Source: an uncultured virus (IMG/VR IMGVR_UViG_3300007735_000782) (lineage: Duplodnaviria; Heunggongvirae; Uroviricota; Caudoviricetes). From it: 64,000 nt of DNA. The stretch lies in the IMG/VR virus record IMGVR_UViG_3300007735_000782. One strand, 5' to 3'. Position 1 is the stretch's first letter; the number at the start of each line of letters is the position of its first letter. Below, piece by piece: positions 6,659 to 58,346 of this stretch. Position numbers and translations under genes: made by a program. The notes beneath the pieces were generated by a model. That model worked only from the letters and a program-made list of their open reading frames with translations, was not told the DNA's origin and made no database searches.

Positions 6659-8743
6659 TTACCGCAGGCCGTAGTTGAGGAACGCCCGCACTTCAGGCGC
6701 TGGGGTTATTACATTATAGGAATTAGTCGTGGAACAATTAGATGCCTTCATCCATTCCGCGTTGCTTTCCTCAAGATTAATTATAAGCATAGAATCCACC
6801 ACTCGTCGTGCAGCAAATACCACCACACCTTGTTCGATAGGACGAGCGCGAGAAGCGACTGCGCTATCAATAATCACATCATAAAACCCTCGACCATAAT
6901 TAGAAGCCACAATGCCAGCTCCGGCATAGCCGTTATATAAAGAACCGCCACGAGAAGTTGCAAGAGTGATAGTTGTAACGCCTGGAACTGTTCTAATGTA
7001 AAATGTTGTGTTATTAATTACAAAACGAAAACCAACTTCAAGCGAATGTTTTCTGTCAAGGGTAAGAACGCCATTACCATCAATATTTGTAATTTCATAA
7101 TCTTCGTTAGCTGTAGGAAAGTCAAATTTACTATCGTATTCAGTGGTGATTGATTCTCTAACTAAATCGTAAATTGACGTTAAGTTCACAATTTCTGCTT
7201 TATCTGGCGCAATATAAAAACGCACAAGTTCTTTTCCGCTTACTCTCTGTTTTCCAACAAAATTTCCTTCTAAAGTACCCATATCAGTTGCATCGTAAAG
7301 CCCTTGGAAAGCAAGAGGAAGCCCTTCCGGCTGTTGCGTAAGTAGAAATGTAGCTTCATTGGCCCCGTCGGGAGCAAGTAATAGTGATTCAGCTAAACCG
7401 AAATCACCAGCACTGCTTTCAGGTAATGTCCCATTAAAATGGCCAACTTCATCTAGCGAAGAAAACACAGCATCCCGTAACACTGCTATTTCTGCACCAT
7501 AGTTTCCAAATAAGCTTAAAGTTTTAGGGAGGCCCTGTAAAGTATTAAGAATTTTATTAGGTGCAAAATCTTTGGCGCGGATAGCAAACAATGGGAAAAA
7601 ATGAGAAGCTTCAGTACCACCTATAAGTGGACCAATTTCTCTACCATTTGAAACATCAGCTCCATATACATCAGCTTTTTCTGATTCACCACCATCCACT
7701 TGTACACTCAAGCCATATTTCATTGCAAATTGTGGCTCTACTAAGTAACCAGAATTGCTAATTTCAATGGTAAAAGGAAGTACGGGTGTACCAAGACTTG
7801 GGGCATTAAGGCTATCAGGGATAAGGATTTCATGCATCAACACCCAACGACCACGAGGCACTTTTTTAACACTTGCTGGCAGTGCTGTTTGATCATCTAC
7901 CACAAATGCATAGAATCTGGCGGAGCTAGCGCCATACCAGCCCCATTCCACTAAATACATGCAATTTTTAGTGAAATCAATAGTGGCATTACTAAGACCA
8001 TCGCCATCCATCGTGTCATGATTAAACTGACTCCGAGGAATAATTACTTCCTTGACAAGACCATCACCTGAAGAACGACGATAAACCAAGCGGAAATCAT
8101 CGCCATCGCCACCAGCTCTTATTTGAAAGAAGAAGCCATCTTGACTATCGCCAATCCCCCATAATTTTTCGCAAGCTGGTAGTTCAGCCCTGCTCATTTG
8201 CACACATACGGACATGCGCATAACACGGCCAGTCTGGTAACGAAAACGCTTGCGAGTGCTTAAACGTGCCCTCTGGAAACCGCCAGAAGCTTTAGCTAGT
8301 TCAATGTTAATGCCACGCCTTGCTGCATCATGAGTGAAACTACCAATAGGTAATGGAAAATAATCAACACCTACATTTTCCAATTGACTCCATTTGGCAC
8401 TTTCTAAATTATCCGCTCCTGTTTCATTGATTCCTTGAATTTCGGTGATGTAAATATCATCACGAAGATCATAATCATCCGTGTAATTAAATAAACTTAA
8501 TGCTTCTTCGGCTCTTGAATTGCCAAGTAAATCCTTTTTTATTTCAGTAGGTTTTTCTAAATATTTAGAAATTACAAGAGGTGTTCCTGTTAGTGGCACC
8601 ACAGATGGAATGCCACTTGCCATTACTGTTTGGCCAGCAGGAAAATCACCAGCCTCCTGCAAAACAGTGCCTGCATTAGCACCACTTGCTACAACATAAC
8701 GTTTTTGCCCTACTTCAGGCGGAAGCTGATAAATAGTTGTCAT
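6659..8743 (-). CDS. Putative virion structural protein (paralog of 8753..10303)
   Basis: Shares 'DLLGN.R', 'F.YQTGR', 'GWYG', 'PSLG.P.LP' with neighbour. Confidence 0.6.
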   Translation of the reverse strand: MTTIYQLPPEVGQKRYVVASGANAGTVLQEAGDFPAGQTVMASGIPSVVPLTGTPLVISKYLEKPTEIKKDLLGNSRAEEALSLFNYTDDYDLRDDIYITEIQGINETGADNLESAKWSQLENVGVDYFPLPIGSFTHDAARRGINIELAKASGGFQRARLSTRKRFRYQTGRVMRMSVCVQMSRAELPACEKLWGIGDSQDGFFFQIRAGGDGDDFRLVYRRSSGDGLVKEVIIPRSQFNHDTMDGDGLSNATIDFTKNCMYLVEWGWYGASSARFYAFVVDDQTALPASVKKVPRGRWVLMHEILIPDSLNAPSLGTPVLPFTIEISNSGYLVEPQFAMKYGLSVQVDGGESEKADVYGADVSNGREIGPLIGGTEASHFFPLFAIRAKDFAPNKILNTLQGLPKTLSLFGNYGAEIAVLRDAVFSSLDEVGHFNGTLPESSAGDFGLAESLLLAPDGANEATFLLTQQPEGLPLAFQGLYDATDMGTLEGNFVGKQRVSGKELVRFYIAPDKAEIVNLTSIYDLVRESITTEYDSKFDFPTANEDYEITNIDGNGVLTLDRKHSLEVGFRFVINNTTFYIRTVPGVTTITLATSRGGSLYNGYAGAGIVASNYGRGFYDVIIDSAVASRARPIEQGVVVFAARRVVDSMLIINLEESNAEWMKASNCSTTNSYNVITPAPEVRAFLNYGLR

Positions 8744-29599: not shown

Positions 29600-29896
29600 A
29601 TGCAGCACATTCAACTTCATCGCCTCACCACTCGCTTTAAGGCTCCAAACGTCACTATTCAAGAAAGCAGGCAAGTTATTGGTCAACGCATGAAAGAAGC
29701 AAGATTGAATTGCGGTTTGTCGCAACAGGATATAGCGCAGATTTTGCACTGCGATCAAACTACTGTTTCACGAATGGAACGCGGAGCAATATCTCCTGAT
29801 TGCGCTCAAATTCGCACACTTAGCTCAGTGTTTCAACTTTCTATTTTGTATCTACTTGGCTATCCCACTTTCGTGGTATCTGCTGTTAGCAATTAA
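29600..29896 (+). CDS. XRE-family helix-turn-helix regulator
   Basis: 'IGQRMKEARL..GLSQ.DIA..L......VSRMERG...P'. Confidence 0.85.
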   Translation: MQHIQLHRLTTRFKAPNVTIQESRQVIGQRMKEARLNCGLSQQDIAQILHCDQTTVSRMERGAISPDCAQIRTLSSVFQLSILYLLGYPTFVVSAVSN

Positions 29897-36838: not shown

Positions 36839-37321
36839 ATGCCCACTCCTGTTCAATTTATTTTTTCTGACGAAGAAAGAAGGCTTGCAATGGCAGAAGG
36901 CATGAGGCGACAGGGCACTAATGAAAACCAAGGGCTTCGCGGTCGTAATGGTGGTGCATGGCGAGGCACCAAAGCGTTAGATATTCATTTGCTTGGTGCT
37001 GCAGGAGAAATGGCAGTTGCTTCGCATTTAGGTTTAAAATCATTTTTGTATCAAGAAACACAAGCAAAGCGTGGTAGTGACGACCTTCCCGGTATAGACG
37101 TCAAAACACGCTCCAAACATAAATATGATTTAATTGTTCAAAAAAACGAAGATCCTCGGAAAAAATTCGTTTTAGTCACCATTGAAGATCAAACGACGCT
37201 TCTTCATGGCTGGTGCTATGGGGAAGAAGCAATGAAAGACGAGTATTGGGCTGACCCTGCTCGCGGGCGACCTGCTTATTTTGTTCCTAAAGATGTACTA
37301 AGATCTATGAACACGCTATAG
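36839..37321 (+). CDS. Hypothetical protein, possible PD-(D/E)XK nuclease fold
   Basis: 'G..GE.AV', 'D...IDVKT' pattern. Confidence 0.5.
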   Translation: MPTPVQFIFSDEERRLAMAEGMRRQGTNENQGLRGRNGGAWRGTKALDIHLLGAAGEMAVASHLGLKSFLYQETQAKRGSDDLPGIDVKTRSKHKYDLIVQKNEDPRKKFVLVTIEDQTTLLHGWCYGEEAMKDEYWADPARGRPAYFVPKDVLRSMNTL

Positions 37322-37326
37322 CAATA

Positions 37327-38016
37327 ATGATCAAAGATCCAAATCGCTTTTATGTCTACGCTTATTTGAGAAGTAAAGACTCGGAAAACGGCAAGAAAAA
37401 TACGCCCTATTACATAGGCAAAGGATGTGGAGATCGTGCCACTTCTAAATTGCGAACGATTCCAAAGCCTTCAGACCCTGCTCTTATTATTTACGTTGAA
37501 GAAGGATTAACAGAAGAAGAAGCGTTTTCTTTGGAAAAATACTACATTGCTCTCTACGGACGCATTGACAATGGCACTGGCAGCTTGCGCAATTTAAGTG
37601 ACGGGGGTGACGGGCCATCTGGGGCTATTCACTCAGAAGAGACCAAGAGAAAAAGAGCAGAAGCTGGGCGGGGGCGAAGACACAGCAAGGAATCCGCTCT
37701 AAAAATTTCCGAGGCTCAGTTGGCTGAGAAAAATCACATGTGGGGTAAAGTTGTGTCCGAGGAAACTCGGCTTAAATTATCTAAGGCGAATAAGGGTCTT
37801 AAAAGGTCCAAGGAAACCCGTCAAAGAATTGCAGCAGGAAAATGCCGCTATTTGTGCGAATTAATTGACCCTGCCGGTCTAGTGCATGTAGTTCAAAATT
37901 TATATCAATTTTGTTTGAAAAATGGATTGCATCGCAAATTAATGAGTAACTTGGTTAACGGCAAAAGAAGTTCCTATAAAGGATGGACTGTTCGAAAAAT
38001 TGAGTTTTTGCGCTGA
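37327..38016 (+). CDS. GIY-YIG-like homing endonuclease with NUMOD3 repeats
   Basis: 'YVYAY...YYIGKG...R', 'LRN..DGG.G', repeats 'HSEETKRK', 'SEETRLKLS'; coupled to terminase. Confidence 0.85.
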   Translation: MIKDPNRFYVYAYLRSKDSENGKKNTPYYIGKGCGDRATSKLRTIPKPSDPALIIYVEEGLTEEEAFSLEKYYIALYGRIDNGTGSLRNLSDGGDGPSGAIHSEETKRKRAEAGRGRRHSKESALKISEAQLAEKNHMWGKVVSEETRLKLSKANKGLKRSKETRQRIAAGKCRYLCELIDPAGLVHVVQNLYQFCLKNGLHRKLMSNLVNGKRSSYKGWTVRKIEFLR

Positions 38017-39395
38017 TGGCACGACTGTCTTGCGGCGATTTTGCCAAGCACGTATTAAATACTCCGCTGTGGCCTAAACAACAAGAAATATTAAATGAAT
38101 ATTTTGGTGGTGGTAAAAGCCATGCAGTATGGGCGCTTGGCCGAAGAGCAGGAAAAACACTCATGGCTTCTATTGCAGCAGCATATGCTTGCTTTATCCT
38201 AGAAAGCTATTACAAGAATAAAGTACGGAAAAATGAAAAGTGGTATATTGTTACTATTGCAAATGATCAGCAGCAATCAAAGATTTCTTTAAATAACATT
38301 CGTCAATTAATACTAGATAGCCCTCTTGGTGATGAAATCACAAGAGAAACTGCAACAGAAATTCAAATCAGTAATGGTTGTGTATTCCAAGCAATTCCAG
38401 CTTCTGCTCGTGCTTCTCGCGGTAAAGCTGTAGTAATGTGTATATTCGATGAGCTAGCCTTCCAGTTGGAAGGAGATGCCAATAGAGGCGCAAAAGCAAT
38501 ATACGACGCGCTGTCACCTTCTATCGCTCAATTTGGCAGCCATGGCCGAATACTAGAGCTATCTTCACCTTGGCTCACCGATGGATTATTTTATTCCCAT
38601 TTTAGAGAAGCTGAAAGTGGTGAATTTCCATTCATGCAAGCTAAAAATATTCCCACCTGGGAAATAAATCCTAATTTACCATGGGGATGTCCTTTTTTAG
38701 TTGCAGAGCAAAAAAGAGATGAAGATAAATTTTGGACAGAATATGGCGCTAAATTCAGAGGAAATAAATCAGCACTATTAGCTTCTGAAATTGTAGATGC
38801 TGCAATTAATAAAAATAGAAACGTATTGTTGCCAATAAGGGAAGTGATGGGCAAATACGTGCTAGCACTTGACCCTGCTCGTGGTGGTGTGGGACGAGAT
38901 GAATACATTGCTTGTATTGTGCATTTTGAACGTGCCACGTTAGTGGTGGATAAGTTCCATACGTTTATGGCTGATTTTGAAATCAATGGTAAAAAAGAAG
39001 TTAGTATTCAAGCAGTTGAAGATTGGATACGGGAACATCATAAGATTTATCAATTTGAAAGTATTGTACTTGACCAATTTAATAGTTCAGCTACCATTCA
39101 AAGCTTGTCGGGTGATTTCCCTATTAGAGAACTTACTTGGTCTGTTAGCACCAAAATGAAAGCATTTAGTAAAATGAAAGAATTGTTTAATGCTGGTTTA
39201 GTAGACATCTATCCGCATGAGCAAGCTATTAGACAGCTTAAAAATTTAAATGTTGTTTACAGACAAAGTGGTCAATGGTCAGTAACTGGTGGTAAAGAAG
39301 TAGGAGTGGATGACTTTTGTTTTGCTTTAGCTGCTGCAATCCTAGAAGCATCAAAAGAAGACGATTTAAATTGGATGGAAGGTTTACTTCGCTGA
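38016..39395 (+). CDS. terL: Terminase large subunit
   Basis: Walker A 'GRRAGKT', Walker B 'CIFDE', 'LSSP', RNase H-like 'ALDPA', 'DD...ALA'. Confidence 0.92.
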   Translation: MARLSCGDFAKHVLNTPLWPKQQEILNEYFGGGKSHAVWALGRRAGKTLMASIAAAYACFILESYYKNKVRKNEKWYIVTIANDQQQSKISLNNIRQLILDSPLGDEITRETATEIQISNGCVFQAIPASARASRGKAVVMCIFDELAFQLEGDANRGAKAIYDALSPSIAQFGSHGRILELSSPWLTDGLFYSHFREAESGEFPFMQAKNIPTWEINPNLPWGCPFLVAEQKRDEDKFWTEYGAKFRGNKSALLASEIVDAAINKNRNVLLPIREVMGKYVLALDPARGGVGRDEYIACIVHFERATLVVDKFHTFMADFEINGKKEVSIQAVEDWIREHHKIYQFESIVLDQFNSSATIQSLSGDFPIRELTWSVSTKMKAFSKMKELFNAGLVDIYPHEQAIRQLKNLNVVYRQSGQWSVTGGKEVGVDDFCFALAAAILEASKEDDLNWMEGLLR

Positions 39396-41025: not shown

Positions 41026-42483
41026 TTATTCGGCGCAACTACTACAAACATTAGTAGTCAATTCGCAAACAACAGTTTCCTCATTATCTTCATCGTTGGC
41101 TTCATCATTTAAACCAAACATATCTTTAAACGACTCATCTAGCGCAGCATAAGCATCATCTTTCCGCTGTGTGTCCGAAAGGACTTGCAGGGAATAATAG
41201 AGGCTTGTCTGAGATGATTCTAGCCAATCATTCAAGAAGGCACGATCATAAACAACCATATCACTCCAACTATTAAAGCTATAACCATGAAATAATCCTG
41301 ATGATTGGTACAAACTAACAATGCCATTCATTGCTTTGCAATACGCTTCCCAGCCCACTGTTTCTGCAATTTCTACATCACCATAATCAAAACTTTCCAC
41401 GCCAAATGTACCACTATCTCTATCAACAAGACGAGCGATGGGAGGAGCAATTTCAGGCGTAGCAGTAAAACCTTTCTTATCTAAATAACGATAAGAGCAA
41501 GAAGCAGTAGGAGCAATGGCAAAAGCACGTTCCATGCCATGCTTAAATGCAACATCAGCAGCTTGAATAATTGCACTGGATAAAGTGATTACAATTGCTC
41601 CCGCTTTGGTTTCTTTCCATTGATCACACCATGGCAATGAATCTTTATCTAGCCATGCTTCAAGGGCATCACCAAAATCTTTATACGATACTTCTTCTGC
41701 AGCTAAGAAATTAGCAAGGCCAAGCATACCTAGACCCACCTGCCTATCAACAATAGGAGGAAGGTACTCGCCAGTAGCACCAACTTTAGTAATTCCATGT
41801 AATTGACATAATTGTTCCATGCCATCGACAAATGCTTTTTCAATATCATTAATACCACAAGCCCCCATATTTACATGCTGTAGCAAACAAGTGCCACGAT
41901 GGGGCAAATATACTTCTAGGCAAACATTAGCATAAATGCGTTCACCATTTTCGTTATAACGAATTTTATTTAACCAAATATCTCCAGAGCTAATGCCTTT
42001 AAGCGTGGCATCAATTAGTTCAGGCGATGCAAGGTCCAAAAACAAAGGATCTACATTTAAACAACGTTTAACCCATGGCAATTCTTTTCTGGATGCAGTA
42101 ACAAAATCAATGGCATCAGGGTGAGTGTAATCAAGATGAAGAACAACAGCACCATTTTTATAAATACCACCACGACGTAATATTTCATTAAGTGTGGAAT
42201 AAATTTTACCAAAGCTAAGAGGACCACTAGCTACCAAGCCTTTGCCATTTTCATGACCTTTAGCTCGTAAATTAGAAAGATGAATGGCAACACCAGCACC
42301 ATTTCGCAGCCCATGGGATACAAACCTCCAAGACTGCTCAATGCCCTCAGGGCCTTCCATAGCATCTTCCACTACAAATACTGTGCAGCTAACTGCGAGG
42401 CGCCCCTCGGGGTCATCCAGCCAGCTTTGCACCCTGCCAGTGCGGGCAACTTTGGTGCATTGAGCGTTTTCTTTGAAATTCAT
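41026..42483 (-). CDS. nrdA: Ribonucleotide reductase large subunit, minimal cyano-sipho/podovirus type
   Basis: 'VSCTV', 'NVCLE', 'GTCLL', 'IAPTASCS', C-terminal 'CSSCAE'. Confidence 0.9.
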   Translation of the reverse strand: MNFKENAQCTKVARTGRVQSWLDDPEGRLAVSCTVFVVEDAMEGPEGIEQSWRFVSHGLRNGAGVAIHLSNLRAKGHENGKGLVASGPLSFGKIYSTLNEILRRGGIYKNGAVVLHLDYTHPDAIDFVTASRKELPWVKRCLNVDPLFLDLASPELIDATLKGISSGDIWLNKIRYNENGERIYANVCLEVYLPHRGTCLLQHVNMGACGINDIEKAFVDGMEQLCQLHGITKVGATGEYLPPIVDRQVGLGMLGLANFLAAEEVSYKDFGDALEAWLDKDSLPWCDQWKETKAGAIVITLSSAIIQAADVAFKHGMERAFAIAPTASCSYRYLDKKGFTATPEIAPPIARLVDRDSGTFGVESFDYGDVEIAETVGWEAYCKAMNGIVSLYQSSGLFHGYSFNSWSDMVVYDRAFLNDWLESSQTSLYYSLQVLSDTQRKDDAYAALDESFKDMFGLNDEANDEDNEETVVCELTTNVCSSCAE

Positions 42484-43037
42484 TTGAAACTCTTAGGGTA
42501 AAGATGGTGACCGTGGTCTTGTAAATAATCGGCCCGACTTGACTGAGCTTTGGCTAAAGCCTCTTCGGGAGTGGCAAATCCGCCTAGCGAGACATCTTTG
42601 CCGTTGATACTTATGCGAGCATAGTATCTGTTGCCGACTTTCTTAACACCTCTGCCATAAAGGGATTCACGGTTTTTCGTGTTAAGTAGTTGACCTGAGT
42701 AAGTAGCCAGTCGCAGGTTTTCGGGGTCATTATTTGACGGATTCCTGTCGATGTGATCAATGGTGTAACAACCAGGATCTTGCTGGTGATGAAGTGCCCA
42801 AACAATGCGGTGAGCGTGAAAGCGTTTCCCGTAAAAGTTCACAATGCAATGCCCCGTGTCTTTCAAGGAGCCCGCTACATCGCCTGCTTTCATTTTCCAG
42901 TGATCTACTTTCCACCTGAGTCCAGTGGGGCTGGATGGGTCAATAGATAATCTGCCGCTTAACTTGTCTAGGTCTAGTGGTAGGTACATGAGAATAGAAA
43001 GACAAACTCCGTGACGACTCACTGGAAAATCTAGCAC
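42480..43037 (-). CDS. HNH homing endonuclease with AP2-like domain
   Basis: 'HRIVW', 'IDHIDRNPSNN..ENLR', 'YYARI......LG.F.T.EEA'; ATGA-coupled to RNR. Confidence 0.88.
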   Translation of the reverse strand: MLDFPVSRHGVCLSILMYLPLDLDKLSGRLSIDPSSPTGLRWKVDHWKMKAGDVAGSLKDTGHCIVNFYGKRFHAHRIVWALHHQQDPGCYTIDHIDRNPSNNDPENLRLATYSGQLLNTKNRESLYGRGVKKVGNRYYARISINGKDVSLGGFATPEEALAKAQSSRADYLQDHGHHLYPKSFK

Positions 43038-43062
43038 TGCTTTGGGGCGGATTCATAAGACC

Positions 43063-43086
43063 AAAAAAGCCCGCGCTGGGCGGGCT
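43063..43086 (-). terminator. Rho-independent terminator
   Basis: GCCCGCCAGCGCGGGCTTTTTT on minus strand. Confidence 0.75.
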
Positions 43087-43115
43087 GCAACAACACTGCT
43101 TATCTTAGCCTGTTT

Positions 43116-43298
43116 TCAAAGCCCTTCAGGATCATTTCCGCTTTGAACGTCTTTTGCAAACAAAACCGCCTGTTCTTTACTACGAAAATAATACGGTTTT
43201 CCATTATGAGCAATAAACCACGGGAAACCAGGACGGCTATGGGCAGGCCATAACTTTATGGCGCCAATCATAAAAGGCGATGGTAAATCATCAAACAT
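43116..43298 (-). CDS. Hypothetical protein
   Basis: MFDDLPSPF... start preferred; followed by terminator. Confidence 0.55.
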   Translation of the reverse strand: MFDDLPSPFMIGAIKLWPAHSRPGFPWFIAHNGKPYYFRSKEQAVLFAKDVQSGNDPEGL

Positions 43299-43379
43299 AA
43301 GAAAACCCCTAGTGTTATTAATACTAGGGGCGATGGTGGTAAAAAATAGTAGCAAAAATTACAAAACTATTGAACCCAG

Positions 43380-43796
43380 TTACAAGTCTGTCAGAAAAAT
43401 ACTTTCAGGCAACCATTGCGCAAATAAATTATATAAAGTGCCACGAGTGCGAGAATCATCGTCAAAACCAGCTTCTTCAAACGAATTGTCCAACCACTTG
43501 TACATTGCTTGGATTATTGCATCAGTGGTGTTCGTTGAATCAGCAGTGTAAACAGAACCTTCCGTATTGCTTTCTACTAAATTAAAAATGGTTTCCCAAA
43601 TATCTTTATTAAGCCGTGCTTCGTCTTTACCAATTAAATAACCAATGGCTGCAGCTCCTGCTTTGCTTTTGGCATGTTCACAAGCAATAAAACGTTCCTT
43701 CAATTCATTGAATTTTTTAGGATCGTCCATCACATATTTTGTTGCCAGCCTCAAGAAATCATCAATTGAATTCATGGTCAAAGGAAGAACTACCAA
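43380..43796 (-). CDS. Hypothetical protein
   Basis: 138-aa ORF. Confidence 0.6.
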   Translation of the reverse strand: MVVLPLTMNSIDDFLRLATKYVMDDPKKFNELKERFIACEHAKSKAGAAAIGYLIGKDEARLNKDIWETIFNLVESNTEGSVYTADSTNTTDAIIQAMYKWLDNSFEEAGFDDDSRTRGTLYNLFAQWLPESIFLTDL

Positions 43797-44032
43797 TCAG
43801 GATAGACCACACCTGGCACAAAGTCAAGAACAGGCTCAATGGTGAAATCAATTAAATCTGCTTGGTAACCATTGTATTTATCCCTAGAAGCTTTCCATAA
43901 GCATTTATTTTGCGGGATTAAACGTTCCTTCAGTTCAATAATAACTTTACTGAAATACCGCCTTGCTGCAACACGCAAATGCCAACGTTGCGTAACGATA
44001 ATGACTGTTTCTTGTGGTTCGTAATAAACCAT
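43790..44032 (-). CDS. Hypothetical protein
   Basis: 80-aa ORF overlapping next gene. Confidence 0.5.
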   Translation of the reverse strand: MVYYEPQETVIIVTQRWHLRVAARRYFSKVIIELKERLIPQNKCLWKASRDKYNGYQADLIDFTIEPVLDFVPGVVYPDW

Positions 44033-44595
44033 TTACTTTTCTCTGACCATGGCAAAACTATAGGGCATTGCCGGAAATAACGCAAAACCTAAGAGAAATC
44101 TTAAAAAAATATAAGAGTTTTTAGCCTATTCATTGCTATCACTGGAGTCTCATTTGAGTCTCATTCGCGTCTCATGAGATTTCAATATACGATAGGTAAA
44201 GGAGATGCACATGCTTACGAGCAGTTCATTCACCTTCGCGAGCCGCTACGCGCAGGAGCCCCCAAGGCGTCCTTTCCAAGCGGCTCTGCTCCACCATCAT
44301 CCTTTCAATTACTTTTAATTAAGTAACCTCTGCTAAGGAGCCCTTACGAGCAGAGCCCCAAGCGCCTATTTTCCTAGGGCTCCTTTTTAATTATCTTTTC
44401 AATACTTTCGCGAGAGCATCAGAAGCCGCTAAAGTTGTGATCGCACAGCACTAAACTATAAAAAGATAAAAAAATCAATAAAAAGAAGAAGAAAGGACGC
44501 AATGATTGACGCTCTTTGGGAGCTACCTTCGCGATGCGTCCTAAGAGGCAAAAGGAATTCCATTGGAATTCCGCCGGAACACTTAGAGCAATGCC

Positions 44596-44609
44596 AGTAC
44601 AAGTGTTCC
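44596..44609. promoter_or_regulatory. Cyanobacterial LexA box
   Basis: AGTAC-AAGT-GTTCC matches RGTACNNNDGTWCB. Confidence 0.5.
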
Positions 44610-45085
44610 TTTGGTAAAGAAAGTGCAATTATCGAACTTTGGTGACCTCACAATGCTCGTATGGGCGCGATTGTTCGGTCAGTCGCCATTGATTTTACGC
44701 TGATGCGAGTATTTTACGAAGGTGCGAGTAAATAGTCGTAAAATTAATAAATACTTGCATTACTAATAAATGACCGTTATTAAAATTCCTGATAATTGGA
44801 ATTTTCGATGGAAAAATTGGTCGCATTTGGAAGGGGTAACCCCGACACAGACAAATTAATACAGGCGTACTACTGCTCTGTGTTAAGCTTTGCGACTGAT
44901 AAGAATTCCTAATAGATTAAAGTTATTAATATAACAGAAGGGTTGTTGTTACTTAGTGGCGTAGGGTTAGTGTTATTTTAGGGCCCTAAAATAGTGGATT
45001 TTCTCATTACCTAACCAAACTAAAGCTCTAGACGGTTAAGCCTAGAGCTGATATATATACAACCTAGGGCTCTTGGCCTAGGCTC

Positions 45086-45982
45086 CTAGGCTCCCATGCG
45101 ATCCGCTGAAAGGCAGAATGCATCCCGTTCTGCTGGCGTCCACTTGATGCCATGGGGGAGCTTAAACCTTAAGCCAATGATTTTGTAGCCGTTAGGATCG
45201 GCTGGCCGATAATCCGTTAGGTCTCCATCTTCTACGCTGAGGCTACGGTTCCCAAAATAGGCTTTACCGGGAAGCGATTTGCCTTTCTTGATGTTAAATG
45301 CTGCGGCAATGTTAACACCAGCGCTTAAGGCTTCGGTGGCAAGCTTGAAATTAGACCTATTGTTGTATCCATCAAAGCTAAAAGTTAAGTGATAACCTAA
45401 GCGCTTACATTCGGCCCAATTATGCTTTACTTTCGTATAATCATAGAAAATTACATCTTCTCCCGTATTGTCACGCATAAAGTTAAATATTTCAAAAATG
45501 TTACGCTTGCCGAGTGGTAATATGGCGCCGAACTTAATTCGGCAGAATTGAGCAAAATCAGCAGTTATTTCAAAATCTATATCTTCCCAAACTATATCAC
45601 TAGTGCCATTAAGCCTAAAGGCTAAGGGTTCGCTTGATTTTGTAAGCTTGCCTAGGATTGCCATAATTACTAGGCGGACAAACAGCTTGGGATTGGCGGC
45701 GTAGGCAAGGGTTCGCCTAACTCGGGCCTTCGCTTTGCCATTCATATAAACAGGATTACCGGCAAAGTGTAAACAGATCTTTTTACAATTACCGGCGCCA
45801 TGGCAAACATTAACCCCCGATGTATCAGCGGGAGCGAGATGTAAAATGTAGGTTTGAACTAGGCTCTTTTCAGTTTTAGGGTTGGTACTGAGTAGGGTCC
45901 GGTAAGATAGGTCGAATTCAGAGCAAAGGGCCGCCATATCAGCGGGAAGGGTTGCGCGGGAGTTAAGAACTGAGAAGGTCAT
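45086..45982 (-). CDS. Gp88-like Cys-motif (radical-SAM-like) phage protein
   Basis: 'N.KT.K', 'L.LAPA..SG.NVC....C...CL', 'RLNGTSD..W', 'FYDYTK', 'Y.LTFS', 'DGD..D.R'; start taken at MTFSV. Confidence 0.75.
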   Translation of the reverse strand: MTFSVLNSRATLPADMAALCSEFDLSYRTLLSTNPKTEKSLVQTYILHLAPADTSGVNVCHGAGNCKKICLHFAGNPVYMNGKAKARVRRTLAYAANPKLFVRLVIMAILGKLTKSSEPLAFRLNGTSDIVWEDIDFEITADFAQFCRIKFGAILPLGKRNIFEIFNFMRDNTGEDVIFYDYTKVKHNWAECKRLGYHLTFSFDGYNNRSNFKLATEALSAGVNIAAAFNIKKGKSLPGKAYFGNRSLSVEDGDLTDYRPADPNGYKIIGLRFKLPHGIKWTPAERDAFCLSADRMGA

Positions 45983-46035
45983 GATTAAGAGGGGAGGGGG
46001 GGGAAGGGGAAGGGAAGGGAGGGGAGGGGAGAGAG

Positions 46036-46191
46036 TCAGCGCCCCCAATGGACCACGCGGCAATAGTCAACCGCATGGGAAGCTTGGCAACGCTTAAACC
46101 GGGCGGCGGCGTCGCGATCGCTCCAAACCAAAGCCACAACAAAGGCGAAGCAATAAACGGGAATAGCTATGCGATGCATTAATGGGTGCAT
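46036..46191 (-). CDS. Small membrane protein with CQxxHxxxYCR motif (51 aa, not in ORF track)
   Basis: MHPLMHRIAIPVYCFAFVVALVWSDRDAAARFKRCQASHAVDYCRVVHWGR. Confidence 0.6.
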   Translation of the reverse strand: MHPLMHRIAIPVYCFAFVVALVWSDRDAAARFKRCQASHAVDYCRVVHWGR

Positions 46192-46408
46192 GATTAAACA
46201 AGCAAAGGTCGGCAGCGGATCGATTCACTGCTTGCGCCTATTGTTGCGCCTATTCTGCCAACGTCTAAAGAAAGTGGCCAGTTGCGCAACTGTCCACCGT
46301 AACGCTGCTTTGCATTGACAAAATAGCCAATGCATCATAGGGGAGCCCACAGGGGGCGAATTGTAGCTAACTATAACGGCGGAAAGTATCACCTAACGTA
46401 ATGCTAAG

Positions 46409-46546
46409 TAACATTATTAAGAAATGTTAAATAACATTATTAAGAAATATTAAGTAACATTATGAAAAAATATTAAGTAACATTATTAAGAAATGTTAAA
46501 TAACATTATTAAGAAATGTTAAATAACATTATTAAGAAATGTTAAA
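46409..46546. repeat. Six tandem 23-bp repeats TAACATTATTAAGAAATGTTAAA
   Basis: Copies at 46409, 46432, 46455, 46478, 46501, 46524; four exact, two variants. Confidence 0.95.
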
Positions 46547-46568
46547 TAATAACAACGGAAGCGTTATA

Positions 46569-46789
46569 TTAAGAAAAGGTTAAGAAAAGGTTAAGAAAAG
46601 GTTAAGTTAAGGCAAGGTTAAGAAGAGGTTAAGGTTAGGTTAAGTTAAGAAAAGGTTAAGGGAAGGTTAAGATTAGGTTAAGTTAAGGTTTGGTTAAGAA
46701 AAGGTTAAGATTAGGTTAAGAATAGTACATTTGTACTAGGTTAAGAAAAAGTTAAGGGAAGGTTAAGAAAAGGTTAAGAGAAGGTTAAG
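46569..46789 (-). repeat. Array of CTTAACCT-N3 repeats (cyanobacterial Pho-box half-sites)
   Basis: 15 exact AGGTTAAG on + strand plus variants, 11-bp period with variable 3-nt spacers. Confidence 0.85.
46723..46738. promoter_or_regulatory. Cyanobacterial LexA box inside the array
   Basis: TAGTAC-ATTT-GTACTA, symmetric match to RGTACNNNDGTWCB. Confidence 0.7.
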
Positions 46790-46805
46790 GAAAAACCAGG
46801 GCCTT

Positions 46806-46890
46806 TATACAACCCTAGCCGGACCCTATACAACCCTAGCCGGATCCAATTTATTTTCCAGCCGGACCCTATACATTCCCAGCCGGACCT
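46806..46890. repeat. Four ~21-bp repeats TATACAACCCTAGCCGGACCC
   Basis: Units at 46806, 46827, 46848, 46870 with invariant AGCCGGA core. Confidence 0.85.
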
Positions 46891-47045
46891 CACCAACCAT
46901 TTTCTGCTTGAGCCGCTTCAATGGCGGCTTCTTCATTGTCATATGGCCCGCCAATGTTTTCACCATCATCTTCATGCCAATACCAGCCTTCTATTAATTC
47001 AGTGCCCCTGCAGCATTCTGCAGTGAAATAATCAATAAGAATCAT
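46890..47045 (-). CDS. Small acidic protein (51 aa, not in ORF track)
   Basis: MILIDYFTAECCRGTELIEGWYWHEDDGENIGGPYDNEEAAIEAAQAENGW. Confidence 0.6.
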   Translation of the reverse strand: MILIDYFTAECCRGTELIEGWYWHEDDGENIGGPYDNEEAAIEAAQAENGW

Positions 47046-47175
47046 TAGTTCCTCTCAGCGGCGGACAGGGCAGAAGACGATGGGTCGAAATCATCGTCAT
47101 TATCATTTTCAAAATCATCGTCATTATCATCATAATCATCGGGATTAATGCCCCAATGGTCTAGGAAATAATCGT

Positions 47176-47484
47176 TCATGCTGCCCCTTGTAGTTTTGCT
47201 ACGGCCAGTGCAAAGGCTTTGGGAGAACGCCCACCAGGGCGCTTTAGCTCATAACCATCACTGTCAACAATGGTGGTGCCAGCACTATCTACGTGCCCTT
47301 CCAGCTCTCGCTCCCACATGCCAACGCAGCGATCATCATGAAACACTGCGATAGTGTCATCGCCATCTTCCATTGCAATGCGAGTGTGAAAGAGAATGTC
47401 TTTTAGGCGAGCAGCTTGATAACTCATTACTGTGGCCCCAAAATAAGGGCCATTATCTTGATAAGTGCGAATGGTGCAGGTCAT
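47176..47484 (-). CDS. Hypothetical early protein
   Basis: MTCTIRTYQDNGP... start preferred. Confidence 0.6.
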   Translation of the reverse strand: MTCTIRTYQDNGPYFGATVMSYQAARLKDILFHTRIAMEDGDDTIAVFHDDRCVGMWERELEGHVDSAGTTIVDSDGYELKRPGGRSPKAFALAVAKLQGAA

Positions 47485-47512
47485 GGTTTTAAAGCGATGG
47501 TAGTAAAAAAAA

Positions 47513-47710
47513 TTAATCTTGATCAATAATACGAAAATCAGGATCATTATCCTTTTTAATCCAGCGGCATTGGTTGACTTCACCATTGTCGCCTCTGATC
47601 ACAACAAATAGTTTATCGTGATGATTTTGCTCCACTATTACAGTGGTAAGCTTTTTGCCGATGCGGCTTTTGCCTTTAGGGCTAATTGCGATGATGTTGA
47701 TGGTGTCCAT
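47513..47710 (-). CDS. Hypothetical early protein
   Basis: 65-aa ORF in early-gene run. Confidence 0.6.
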   Translation of the reverse strand: MDTINIIAISPKGKSRIGKKLTTVIVEQNHHDKLFVVIRGDNGEVNQCRWIKKDNDPDFRIIDQD

Positions 47711-47821
47711 GATTAAGAGAACGAAGGAGTGCTGATCGACGGGCCTTGGCGGCCCTTAATGCTTGGGGCTTGAGCCTCCGTTTAGGAGGCTTGCCGCTGT
47801 TGTGCTGGTGGTTGGGAACAT

Positions 47822-48103
47822 TCATGCTGCTGGAGCCTCCCATTGTGCTTCCATCCAACGCTGGCGATCATCGCCATTTTCAAATAGTGCTAGGGGCTCT
47901 TCGCTGTTGGGCTTAGTGCAGAAAACCTTGCTGGTGATGATCTGGCCAGACTGTGCATTGCGGAAGCTTGCGGTCCAGAGGAAGAAGCCCATGCAGGAAG
48001 CCTCAAGGCTTACGCGACGCTCAATGCAAGCGTTGCGGTGGTCAGACCACCATTGCCCTTGCGTGGGGGTGAAGCTGGTCATGTCGAAGATAAGGCTGTT
48101 CAT
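47822..48103 (-). CDS. Hypothetical early protein
   Basis: Start MNSLIF follows the promoter-hairpin cassette at 48122. Confidence 0.6.
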   Translation of the reverse strand: MNSLIFDMTSFTPTQGQWWSDHRNACIERRVSLEASCMGFFLWTASFRNAQSGQIITSKVFCTKPNSEEPLALFENGDDRQRWMEAQWEAPAA

Positions 48104-48214
48104 GGTTTTGAAGCAATGGTGGAGAGCCTCTCGGCTCGTTGAACTAACAATAAGCTGAAAAGGCCCGGAACGGAAGCCTTTGATCAATCATTGTTGCTTA
48201 TGTTTACAAAAGGC

Positions 48215-48475
48215 TCAGCGCTGCTGGTCGCAAATGCCTGCGAGCATCTCACCAACGTATTGGTGGGCATCACGAAGCGCGTCAAGTGCTGCCTGACGCT
48301 CGGCACGAGCTTGGTGATAGGCACCGTCGGCTTGTGGGTAATAGTCGCGGCCATTCAGCGTGGCGGCAGCCAGAGCGTCGATGGCTTTATCAATGGCATC
48401 GTACGCATTGGCGTACTCATCACGCAGGGTGATAAAGCCGGTGCCGTTGAGGTGGATGGTGGGGATGGTTGCCAT
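48215..48475 (-). CDS. Hypothetical early protein
   Basis: 'PTIHLNGT', 'NGRDYYPQ'; follows promoter-hairpin cassette. Confidence 0.7.
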   Translation of the reverse strand: MATIPTIHLNGTGFITLRDEYANAYDAIDKAIDALAAATLNGRDYYPQADGAYHQARAERQAALDALRDAHQYVGEMLAGICDQQR

Positions 48476-48550
48476 GGTGAGAAAAGAAGGAGAAGCTCGC
48501 GCTTCGTTGAAACCAATATATGCGCAAAAGGTGCTTTGATACCCTTTTGT

Positions 48551-48829
48551 TTATTTTTCTTTACAAACGGCTTCCATCAGTTGCTTTTGGCTAATTCGCT
48601 TGCCATTAACGTTCCATGATGTATTTCGGCTTAATTTACCATTTATGCAACGATTGGAAATAGTGCAATTAATTTCTTTACCATTGAATTTTCCTATAGC
48701 CTGGCCATAGCCTTCATTGCGGTGGGCAACATAAGCTTGATCATAAAGTTTACCAGTAAAAACATAAGCTTCAGCGTGAAGTTGAGAGGCTCCCACTGCT
48801 AACAATTGATCTTTAGAAAGGTAATGCAT
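48551..48829 (-). CDS. Hypothetical early protein
   Basis: 92-aa ORF. Confidence 0.6.
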   Translation of the reverse strand: MHYLSKDQLLAVGASQLHAEAYVFTGKLYDQAYVAHRNEGYGQAIGKFNGKEINCTISNRCINGKLSRNTSWNVNGKRISQKQLMEAVCKEK

Positions 48830-48831
48830 GA

Positions 48832-49011
48832 TTAACGAGCGTTGATGATGTTGTAGAAATACTGTTCAGCTTCCCACTTGTTATTAAAGATGCCGCAGGA
48901 AGTATATTTACGGTGAGGGATTTGCCCTTGCCAGTAATATGCTTCCCATTTGTAGCAACCATTGGCAAGCATGATGCTTCTAACGTCGTAACCCAATTCT
49001 GATGTTTTCAT
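48832..49011 (-). CDS. Hypothetical early protein (59 aa, not in ORF track)
   Basis: MKTSELGYDVRSIMLANGCYKWEAYYW...; tiles between neighbours with 2-nt gaps. Confidence 0.55.
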   Translation of the reverse strand: MKTSELGYDVRSIMLANGCYKWEAYYWQGQIPHRKYTSCGIFNNKWEAEQYFYNIINAR

Positions 49012-56906: not shown

Positions 56907-57143
56907 ATGCCAAAAAGAATTTATGAAGGTGGCAAACGCCGTCATCATTTCACCATTTCTGATCAAGCATTTGCCCATTTGTCAGCAATTGCTGCAGATG
57001 GCACATTGTCTCGTTCGGAAGCGTTAGAGCGTCTCATACGTTCCACGCCATTATTTGAAGGCAGTGCCACGCTTGCTGATGGTGCCTGGCCTTTTGTTAT
57101 TGATCACTCATCCCCTTTGCCATTATCCCATGAACCTAGCTGA
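56907..57143 (+). CDS. Ribbon-helix-helix DNA-binding protein
   Basis: 'RHHFTISD.A...L..IA....LSRSEALERLIR'; divergent from primase. Confidence 0.7.
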   Translation: MPKRIYEGGKRRHHFTISDQAFAHLSAIAADGTLSRSEALERLIRSTPLFEGSATLADGAWPFVIDHSSPLPLSHEPS

Positions 57144-57381
57144 ATTAATTCAAGCCTTACAGCAAGCCGTTGCATTAGTGCCTGCTGATTCGGAGGTGGT
57201 CACTAGCTTTGAACAGGCCACGCTGGAAGAGGGCTTTTCGTGGGAACACACGGAAGGAATTTCCGATGTTCGCATTTGTAATGATTGGCCCCTGCCAGGT
57301 GACAGCATGCTGGTAGCTGAACATGAAAAGCCATTTAAGGTGATAATTTTCTATGACATCCATAGCAATTTAAATCCATGA
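57130..57381 (+). CDS. Hypothetical protein
   Basis: MNLAELIQAL start; coupled to next gene. Confidence 0.55.
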   Translation: MNLAELIQALQQAVALVPADSEVVTSFEQATLEEGFSWEHTEGISDVRICNDWPLPGDSMLVAEHEKPFKVIIFYDIHSNLNP

Positions 57382-58346
57382 CCTCTTCTTATTTTCTTTA
57401 CGATCCTAAATTTATGCAATCCCCCGCTGCTTTTGCTATGGCCGAACGTATGAATGGCATCTTCTCTCCCTTAGAGATTTTGCCTGAAGCTTTCACTAAA
57501 GCTTATGAACTTCCCATTGGTGAACATGTAGAGAAAAACTACAAAGGGCTTTCTTATCTTTCATGGCCTTTTGCTTTTCGCTACCTCAAAGAACAATTCC
57601 CTACATTATTTGTAGCTTTTGAAGAAAGCACTGTGGGGTGGCCAGTATTTGGTCAAACTGGATGTTGGCTATTGCGTCCATACTTAACTGATGGATGTCG
57701 TCGCACACCAGCTTTAGTGTTTCCCATTATGGACAACAAACATAATGCAGTGAAAGAACTTGATGCTCGTCAAGTAAGCGACAACATTCAAAGGGCTAGC
57801 GTTAAATGTATTGCTACTTTCACTGGTTTAGGGCTCAAGCTGTATTCCGGTGAAGATATTCCTATTAATGATGAAAAAGAACCATCCAAACATGAAAAAG
57901 AACCATCTAAACTCCCGCTCCAACAGGAAGCAACGAAGCCTGCTGCGAGGGCAGGCACGAAAGCAGCGCCAGTTGCGGAGCATGTTACTGCTCCTGGAGC
58001 AACAGGGCTTTCTGCGGCCAGTAGCACCAGTGAGTTCAATGGCAAAGAAGCGCTTCTTAGCTTCTGTCGAGCCAATCCCCTCGGCTATGGGGAGGAGCGC
58101 AGGAGCATGATTGCTGGTAAAACAGCGCTGGAAGCCCTTGGCCTTTCTAAAGGCGATGATATTAAAGATGCGGCAATGTTTGCCAATGTAGTAACCACCA
58201 TGGTCACTGCATGGATCAAGGAAGAAGGGCTAAAGCTTACCAAAGCTCAAATGACTAGTGAATTGGACATTTTAAGAAAAGCTTGTGAAGTGTCAACGGA
58301 ACAAGCAATCAAGGAGGTGGAGGTTTTTGTGCAGGGAAAGAAATAA
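57378..58346 (+). CDS. Single-strand annealing protein (DUF1071/Sak3-like)
   Basis: 'LSYLSW..A', 'PIMD...NA', 'IQR..VK.IA...GLGL.LY.GEDIP'. Confidence 0.85.
   Translation: MTSSYFLYDPKFMQSPAAFAMAERMNGIFSPLEILPEAFTKAYELPIGEHVEKNYKGLSYLSWPFAFRYLKEQFPTLFVAFEESTVGWPVFGQTGCWLLRPYLTDGCRRTPALVFPIMDNKHNAVKELDARQVSDNIQRASVKCIATFTGLGLKLYSGEDIPINDEKEPSKHEKEPSKLPLQQEATKPAARAGTKAAPVAEHVTAPGATGLSAASSTSEFNGKEALLSFCRANPLGYGEERRSMIAGKTALEALGLSKGDDIKDAAMFANVVTTMVTAWIKEEGLKLTKAQMTSELDILRKACEVSTEQAIKEVEVFVQGKK

Follow-up and report, generated by a model that had tools for sequence, protein, structure and literature searches.

A conserved non-coding repeat module of Pho-box-type units as a candidate host-regulator docking platform in freshwater cyanosiphoviruses

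We analyzed a 64-kb stretch of DNA from an uncultured virus (IMG/VR record IMGVR_UViG_3300007735_000782; 64,000 nucleotides, hereafter the window) and focused on a repeat module at positions 46400–46889. The window represents a tailed phage with genes for portal, terminase, major capsid, and tape measure proteins, as well as a primase/helicase, a Sak-type annealing protein, an exonuclease, ribonucleotide reductase (RNR), ThyX, and dCTP deaminase, as indicated by Pfam and PHROGs scans. Among isolates, Synechococcus phage S-CBS4 is the closest (63% amino acid identity in the portal and 54% in the primase/helicase), and near-identical DNA was detected in freshwater metagenomes (lakes, rivers, and others) of 13 studies, with no RNA run among those listed as containing the module. 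The initial annotation of this DNA had described a gene-free segment of about 480 bp made of four abutting repeat blocks, and sequence reading together with Tandem Repeats Finder located all four at that place. Their layout stood, and only the extent needed revision, since the module reaches further left to an additional ATCAC-type repeat at 46388–46397. No open reading frame (ORF) of at least 60 aa was found in 46392–46890, where just two short frames (40 and 49 aa) overlap the right edge.

The core of the module is an array on the minus strand (46569–46793) of approximately 18–20 units of CTTAACCT joined by 3-bp linkers. Tandem Repeats Finder resolved it as period 11 with 19.8 copies or, alternatively, as period 38 with 4.0 copies (84% matches); the 11-bp spacing is interrupted by periodic 16-bp steps that produce a 38-bp superperiod of three units. 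The window has 16 copies of AGGTTAAG (CTTAACCT when read on the minus strand), 15 of them within 46577–46789, compared to 1.86 expected from shuffles, and all 15 matches to the degenerate pair YTTAAYYW-N3-YTTAAYYW (0.02 expected) fall within the array. The cyanobacterial Pho box has been published as a tandem of three or more 8-bp CTTAACCT repeats separated by 3-bp linkers (PMC1906773), and in marine Synechococcus it is written PyTTAAPyPyT/A, Py being a pyrimidine (PMC10976474). The array unit, already likened to the Pho box in the initial annotation, is the same as published in sequence, linker length, and minimum copy number, and the head-to-tail units at 11-bp period reproduce the arrangement needed by this protein family. 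Judged by sequence, the array unit is thus the published cyanobacterial Pho box, and binding of SphR/PhoB to it is predicted.

A palindrome, TAGTACATTTGTACTA, lies inside the array (46723–46738) and was retrieved with a LexA-box pattern scan. The cyanobacterial LexA box is given as 14-bp AGTACWNWTGTACT or RGTACNNNDGTWCB (PMC3091678), and AGTACATTTGTACT at 46724–46737 agrees with it at 14 of 14 positions on both strands, so that the proposed LexA assignment of this symmetric palindrome was borne out as a predicted site. The pattern has four matches in the window compared to 0.25 expected, the palindrome being counted on both strands, and strings overlapping the palindrome include weak −10-like ones at most. 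Among distinct related arrays, 15 of 33 contain a GTAC-N4-GTAC palindrome, the commonest form being the identical 18-mer ATAGTACATTTGTACTAG; across relatives the GTAC half-sites are fixed and the central four nucleotides differ (ATTT, GTTT, AAAC, ACTT, AAAT). Elsewhere in the window, a second match to the LexA pattern, AGTACAAGTGTTCC, is found at 44596–44609, between the GP88-family and RNR genes, and a third at 7779–7792, within a structural gene.

Other repeat families flank the array. On its left, block 1 (46400–46549, plus strand) contains 6.5 copies of a 23-bp AT-rich repeat (92% matches), each unit with a 7-bp inverted repeat (TAACATT-N7-AATGTTA), and the unit has six matches in the window compared to zero expected. 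Further left, block 0, the repeat at 46388–46397 (plus strand), was recognized from a comparison of left flanks as a single ATCACCTAAC unit of an ATCAC-type iteron family of ~24 bp; ATCACCTAAC has its only exact match in the window there. On the right, block 3 (46806–46889, plus strand) comprises four 21-bp iterons with the core ATAC-N6-RGCCGGRYC (76% matches) and abuts the stop codon of a gene for a 51-aa acidic protein. Its unit has three matches in the window at up to three mismatches, compared to zero expected, and no tie of this block to any host factor was found. Block 1 had been likened, more loosely, to HLR1, the motif of RpaB. The HLR1 octamer reads (G/T)TTACA(T/A)(T/A). The motif is formed by two imperfect octamers 2 nt apart (10.1101/443713). 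Block 1 units fit it at no fewer than three mismatches, a level at which the window has 49 matches compared to 36.6 expected, and given that the likeness is at noise level and that unrelated repeats replace the block in relatives, we rejected the HLR1/RpaB reading of block 1.

The concern that reads might reveal an assembly artefact was addressed with public data. A contig from another study's independent lake-water run reproduced positions 46520–47035 with zero differences, and other populations varied by whole repeat units: the array was longer by 38 bp in one of them, block 3 was shorter by 43 bp (two units) in a lake population, and an extra 25-nt ATCAC-type copy was inserted behind 46386 in a river population. 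Given that the contig from the independent study is identical and that other runs differ by whole units, the module is not an artefact of one assembly.

Equivalent arrays, which the initial annotation had proposed to seek in related phage contigs, are present. The exact three-unit pattern was found in 10 viral contigs, nine of which are syntenic relatives of the window phage, and in 92 metagenome stretches, 29 of them with flanks homologous to window proteins (E ≤ 1e-4); a few additional metagenome loci were recognized from architecture alone. The number of exact heptamers per array ranged from 4 to 31, some arrays being cut off by contig ends. Thirty-five of 38 flank-matched loci have the same order, in which the end of the early operon, marked by the 51-aa acidic protein gene, is followed by the module and then by a GP88-family gene and RNR, and in these the genes on both sides, including the downstream GP88 and RNR genes, are encoded on the CTTAACCT strand. 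The remaining three are L032 and L059, which belong to one lineage and have an array of flipped polarity within the same layout, and L069, an unrelated three-unit site. In L032 and L059, another left repeat family (GGGACTCGCG...GGTAATATT) stands where block 3 would be, and a LexA-type palindrome lies at the array edge, adjoining a TATAAT.

S-CBS4 itself has no tandem arrays in 23.4 kb around the syntenic site, and all 69,420 bases of its genome contain zero GGTTAAG pairs and zero block-3 pairs. Its homologs of the window genes at 47176–47586 and 43116–43355 abut each other, indicating that the window has an insertion of ~3.8 kb there. A blastn search of window positions 44000–48000 against 50,697 phage records, with the low-complexity filter on, returned no match. 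The clade carrying the module is a group of freshwater cyanosiphoviruses related to S-CBS4, and the module is restricted to it: when 2.9 million viral contigs were scanned with a degenerate four-unit pattern, 12 of the 30 matches belonged to the window clade and 18 to satellites. The other matches in metagenomes and viral contigs were likewise simple satellites with identical linkers, and arrays without homologs of window genes were set aside on these grounds.

These satellites bear on the idea that the module is satellite DNA that expands by itself and serves no function, or else an artefact of assembly, which was already disfavored and which we regard as scarcely credible. Tandem repeats grow by slippage, unit-number polymorphism was observed, and unrelated GGTTAAG-based satellites do occur in other metagenome and viral contigs. 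However, those have identical linkers, whereas the phage arrays combine invariant cores with free linkers, and both the position and the composite order of the module are conserved in dozens of diverged relatives; the identical sequence in the independent study speaks against the artefact variant.

Across the clade, the Pho-type array is the constant part of the module. To its right, 2–5 iterons of 21–22 bp with the block 3 core are present in 27 of 33 distinct arrays; to its left, the 23-bp AT-rich palindromic unit is found in the window's subclade and unrelated repeats in others; and further left, the ATCAC-type family has 1–5 copies in relatives. Among 152 units called in 10 phage arrays, 110 were exact CTTAACCT and 145 fit the degenerate Pho-box consensus, with the limitation that the unit caller demanded a TTAA core, which fixed positions 2–5 by construction. 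Changes were limited to positions 1, 6, 7, and 8 and mostly preserved the Py/Py/W pattern, and the three linker positions were nearly free. The cores were stable across relatives whose proteins are 44–90% identical, and neighboring repeat blocks were exchanged wholesale. The cores are thus under purifying selection, and the combination of constant cores with lineage-swapped flanks is what one would expect if the factor that binds them evolves independently of the phage.

The same variation also has to be weighed in another way, given that all repeats, including the CTTAACCT units, could be iterons for phage-encoded proteins at an origin/copy-control, partition, or packaging site, with the likeness to host motifs being coincidence or mimicry. 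We consider this the main rival reading, though a rather unlikely one. Composite repeat regions are typical of iteron origins such as those of P1, RK2, and lambda, and the module gathers four or five direct-repeat families within ~500 bp, several of them direct repeats of 17–24 bp (blocks 0, 1, and 3), with flanking blocks swapped between lineages, copy numbers polymorphic among populations, and an array that is orientation-tolerant in one lineage. The 11-bp direct repeats also resemble R1 parC, and block 1 is AT-rich in the window, though not in other subclades. A cumulative GC-skew minimum at 44.0–44.5 kb, ~2 kb away and among co-oriented genes, is a weak hint in the same direction; it is one of two near-equal minima (44001–44500 and ~57000–57500), the second coinciding with the divergent early promoter region, and 44–52 kb has positive skew and a G+C content above that of other minus-strand gene blocks. 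Several public contigs terminate inside arrays, which also counts toward this reading, but assemblers end contigs within repeats anyway.

Several observations speak against an iteron function. A chance origin is improbable for exact matches to two host motifs that were published independently. The cores show no covariation with the phage, in contrast to the truly lineage-specific blocks. The neighboring genes encode a predicted radical-SAM-like enzyme on the left and the 51-aa acidic protein on the right, with the primase/helicase 8 kb off, and Rep, ParA/ParB, and ParM genes were not found in the window (Pfam on 103 ORFs, PHROGs). No DnaA box lies within 1.4 kb of the module (the nearest are at 42193 and 48333), and the count of this commonly used consensus in the window is below chance. 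S-CBS4 shares the primase/helicase yet lacks such units genome-wide. For the packaging variant, the terminase genes (36839–39395) are 7 kb distant.

We next consider how the array compares with cyanobacterial genomes. The three-unit pattern, searched in one genome per species across 185,579 species, was retrieved at 17 loci, four of them cyanobacterial, each with just 3–4 units; one cyanobacterial locus lies directly upstream of an OmpR-family response-regulator gene. Perfect pairs yielded nine matches in 8 of 401 sampled cyanobacterial genomes, compared to two for the reversed control. For 30 PstS-family genes in 16 cyanobacterial genomes, we scored the best 11-bp-phased triplet upstream, and the mean was 16.0 of 24 on the gene strand, compared to 12.9 both on the opposite strand and in shuffles. 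Triplets scoring at least 17 occurred at 13 of 30 genes on the gene strand versus 0 of 30 on the opposite strand, mostly 38–103 nt ahead of the start codon, and the maximum score was 20/24. Given the strand bias of these scores and the lack of any above 20, the motif is tied to pstS promoters, and the host sites are degenerate. The phage array, in turn, holds 24/24 runs. The earlier remark that the locus has far more sites than a promoter needs therefore held, as host perfect runs stop at 3–4 units and pstS triplets at 20/24.

We conclude that the module is best read as a conserved non-coding control region, and we give about an even chance to the more specific proposal, drawn from sequence comparison, that it serves as a platform on which host SphR/PhoB and, in approximately half of the lineages, also LexA would dock. 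Phosphorylated SphR/PhoB would coat the array in a phosphate-starved host, and LexA would occupy the embedded operator where present and leave upon DNA damage. Their combined occupancy would couple adjacent phage functions to the phosphate and DNA-damage state of the host, namely transcription toward the radical-SAM-like GP88 and RNR genes and possibly replication via the flanking phage-specific iterons, and titration of the regulators would be a built-in side effect of the number and quality of sites. Given that the units are closer to consensus than host pstS sites, the phage would be expected to outcompete the host for the regulator. Consistent with such a platform, two independent, pre-specified host motifs occur together in one module, and we counted in its favor that no phage-encoded OmpR/PhoB-type or LexA-type DNA-binding domain was found by Pfam among the 103 window ORFs, which also contain no recognizable integrase or partition gene. 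A precedent for host PhoB acting on phage DNA comes from cyanophage S-PM2d, as host PhoB shifts and binds promoters of its DNA-metabolism genes (PMC10976474).

Several points weigh against a host-regulator platform. We infer a cyanobacterial host from the kinship with S-CBS4 and from the freshwater metagenome sources, and small-genome picocyanobacteria, the likely host group, had zero perfect pairs and zero PstS-family matches and thus fell outside both comparisons above. Genes downstream of perfect host pairs were mixed, with no recognizable Pho-regulon genes save the one response regulator. A −10-like TAnnnT stands 8–12 nt past the last unit, the PhoB-type distance, in only 7 of 25 distinct lineages; the distance from the array end to the GP88 start is 300–700 bp; and the flipped polarity in L032 and L059 makes the array a poor fit to a simple activated promoter. 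Many phage ORFs are without a known fold and may include a phage-encoded CTTAACCT binder, and the flanking iterons together with the nearby skew minimum fit an origin-like region.

The number of sites raises a further alternative, a pure DNA sponge, in which the hundreds to thousands of super-consensus sites on replicating genomes would titrate SphR/PhoB, and LexA as well, with no effect in cis, and the host phosphate-stress or SOS response would be reprogrammed. Site number and quality far exceed those of any host promoter examined, the array polarity flips without loss of the array, and the three-unit grouping, with its 38-bp superperiod and the +38-bp variant elsewhere, multiplies the minimal functional site defined in PMC1906773. 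However, 35 of 38 loci have the array at one constant place, flanked by the same two transcription units, and the neighboring iterons are conserved as well; both observations point to a role in cis. Moreover, the cyanophages known to date make use of the Pho response and do not silence it (PMC10976474), and our literature search retrieved no precedent. We therefore judge a pure sponge to be quite improbable.

A bolder possibility, which we rate as unlikely, is that the array is a phosphate sensor written in DNA and a sponge at once, in which phosphorylated SphR/PhoB would polymerize over 10–30 super-consensus sites per genome copy when the host is starved of phosphate. Such a polymer would gate phage replication or middle-gene expression, the regulator would be drained from the host Pho regulon, and the LexA operator would add a DNA-damage override. 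Phosphate-dependent delay or pseudolysogeny has long been reported for Synechococcus phages, and gating of this kind, if true, would provide its molecular basis.

The docking platform has partial parallels in known systems. LexA operators are found in the control regions of CTXphi, coliphage 186, and Bacillus phage GIL01, which resemble the module in placing a host SOS repressor-type site in a phage regulatory region. Those phages are temperate or carrier-state with a defined LexA-controlled promoter, in contrast to the window phage, where searches turned up neither an integrase nor a partition gene and in whose clade the site is optional. Response regulators act at origins in the case of CtrA in Caulobacter, Spo0A and ArcA at oriC, and MtrA in mycobacteria, and the module is similar in having many response-regulator-type sites beside iteron-like repeats, an arrangement that would gate initiation by stress; however, these are proven origins with at most ~5 sites, whereas the module is a candidate origin at most. 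Titration loci and iteron arrays, such as E. coli datA, P1 incA, and R1 parC with its ten 11-bp repeats, are also clusters of high-affinity-type sites in which number matters, and parC shares the 11-bp period. They bind the replicon's own initiator or adaptor, while the motif of the module is that of a host transcription factor, with no cognate phage gene found.

The nearest parallels are the cyanobacterial Pho boxes themselves and those of the P-SSM2 pstS and S-PM2d promoters, with the same 8-bp unit, 3-bp linkers, and at least three head-to-tail units (PMC1906773); the use of host PhoB by S-PM2d (PMC10976474) is predicted for the window phage. Known Pho sites consist of 2–3 degenerate units directly upstream of a −10 element. 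The phage module, in contrast, has 10–31 mostly perfect units that lie 300–700 bp from the next gene, encloses a LexA-type operator, is flanked by iterons, and belongs to a siphovirus that lacks pstS. Pho boxes have thus already been described before genes of cyanomyoviruses, and LexA operators in temperate phages. For an array of consensus host-regulator sites that is so oversized and is conserved across a cyanosiphovirus clade, no description was found in our search of the literature outside subscription journals, to which the original report on the S-CBS4 genome belongs.

Cyanobacteria of both fresh and marine waters are limited by phosphate, which also alters the burst size and timing of cyanophages. 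To our knowledge, phage phosphate sensing is known just from single Pho boxes before cyanomyovirus auxiliary genes. Here, a whole siphovirus clade keeps perfect sites that outclass the pstS promoters of the cyanobacteria examined, and half of the lineages add an SOS-type operator. If host regulators bind, the module would offer a compact, easily cloned handle on phage development in relation to nutrient and damage status, and a candidate natural transcription-factor sink in a phage genome, of which the same literature search yielded no description; if a phage protein binds instead, this phage group would gain its first candidate for an origin or a control region.

Downstream of the module on the CTTAACCT strand, the GP88-family gene (PF17338; 45086–45982, minus strand; 298 aa; Pfam E 1.9e-19) comes first; its start was taken from the alignment of relatives. 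The module had been placed upstream of an isolated two-gene unit at 45086–46191; its position upstream of GP88 was confirmed, but the unit is probably one gene, given that the GP88 start aligns to the ATG at 45982, and the 51-aa frame at 46036–46191 has no counterpart in any related locus. The family is annotated as of unknown function, with homologs in phages of Pelagibacter, Mycobacterium, Caulobacter, Xanthomonas, and others, and GP88 had no sequence match to solved structures or NCBIfam. A structure model from an alignment of 12 sequences (pLDDT 80.6, pTM 0.83) had no Foldseek match at E ≤ 0.001. In VIA, which is independent of Foldseek, radical SAM enzymes were the best matches, filling 18 of the top 23 rows with middling Z scores of 5.2–7.0, among them NifB and PFL-activating enzyme (Z 7.0), QueE, and spore photoproduct lyase. 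Together with three invariant cysteines (CX5CX3C), the model indicates a radical-SAM-like alpha/beta barrel, that is, a predicted enzyme rather than an initiator, and GP88 was rejected as an initiator on the basis of this fold. In the relative L012, a DUF7227 protein takes the place of GP88.

Directly upstream of the GP88 start lies a (GGGGA)n purine tract (45989–46031, plus strand; period 5, 8.6 copies in Tandem Repeats Finder), which would give a CU-rich leader on the mRNA strand and is G-quadruplex-prone on the other strand. A (GGGAA)n tract occupies the same place in the close relative L096, and the public contigs of all four runs compared break at 45988–46037.

On the other side of the module, the gene for the 51-aa acidic protein (46890–47045, minus strand; isoelectric point (pI) 4.1) is the last of a long leftward early operon, and its product is 59–97% identical in related loci. 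It is adjoined by a gene for a 44-aa hyper-acidic protein with D/N runs (47045–47179, minus strand; pI 4.1); both genes are kept next to the module in relatives and are missing from S-CBS4. A hairpin (46910–46930) lies toward the 3′ end of the 51-aa coding sequence, and relatives keep it through compensatory, synonymous changes, for example GAGCCGC...GCGGCTT versus GAGCGGCC...GGCCGCTT. This hairpin could end a transcript, and a plus-strand TTGACA hexamer points into the module in several lineages, as would suit a repeat-rich non-coding RNA transcribed from the module and acting at the RNA level, for instance by sequestering an RNA-binding factor. The folding z-score of −3.5 agrees with this, but the opposite strand folds equally (z −3.4), as DNA palindromes predict, and the array itself is unpaired. 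With no relevant Rfam match in 43000–49000 and no acceptable −10 element behind the TTGACA, such an RNA appears very improbable.

A basic 115-aa protein of the clade was also considered as a binder of the units and rejected, since L012 has an array but no homolog of this protein within 5 kb; Atlas suggested a WYL_2-like small phage protein, as a lead only, and the family is present on 29% of cluster members.

The sole recognizable DNA-binding regulator in the window is an Xre-type helix-turn-helix gene (29600–29896, plus strand), which stands alone on the opposite strand amid the structural-gene block. An HNH endonuclease gene (42480–43037) adjoins the 5′ end of the RNR large-subunit gene, and a NUMOD3 homing-endonuclease gene (37327–38016) lies between the genes for a putative small terminase (160 aa) and the large terminase; S-CBS4 is without both insertions at the corresponding places. 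Finally, two runs labeled as a single organism rather than a metagenome contained, when compared over 43000–49000, a low-depth relative of the window phage, most pieces being 90–99% alike, which could represent a carrier-state or contaminating phage in culture.

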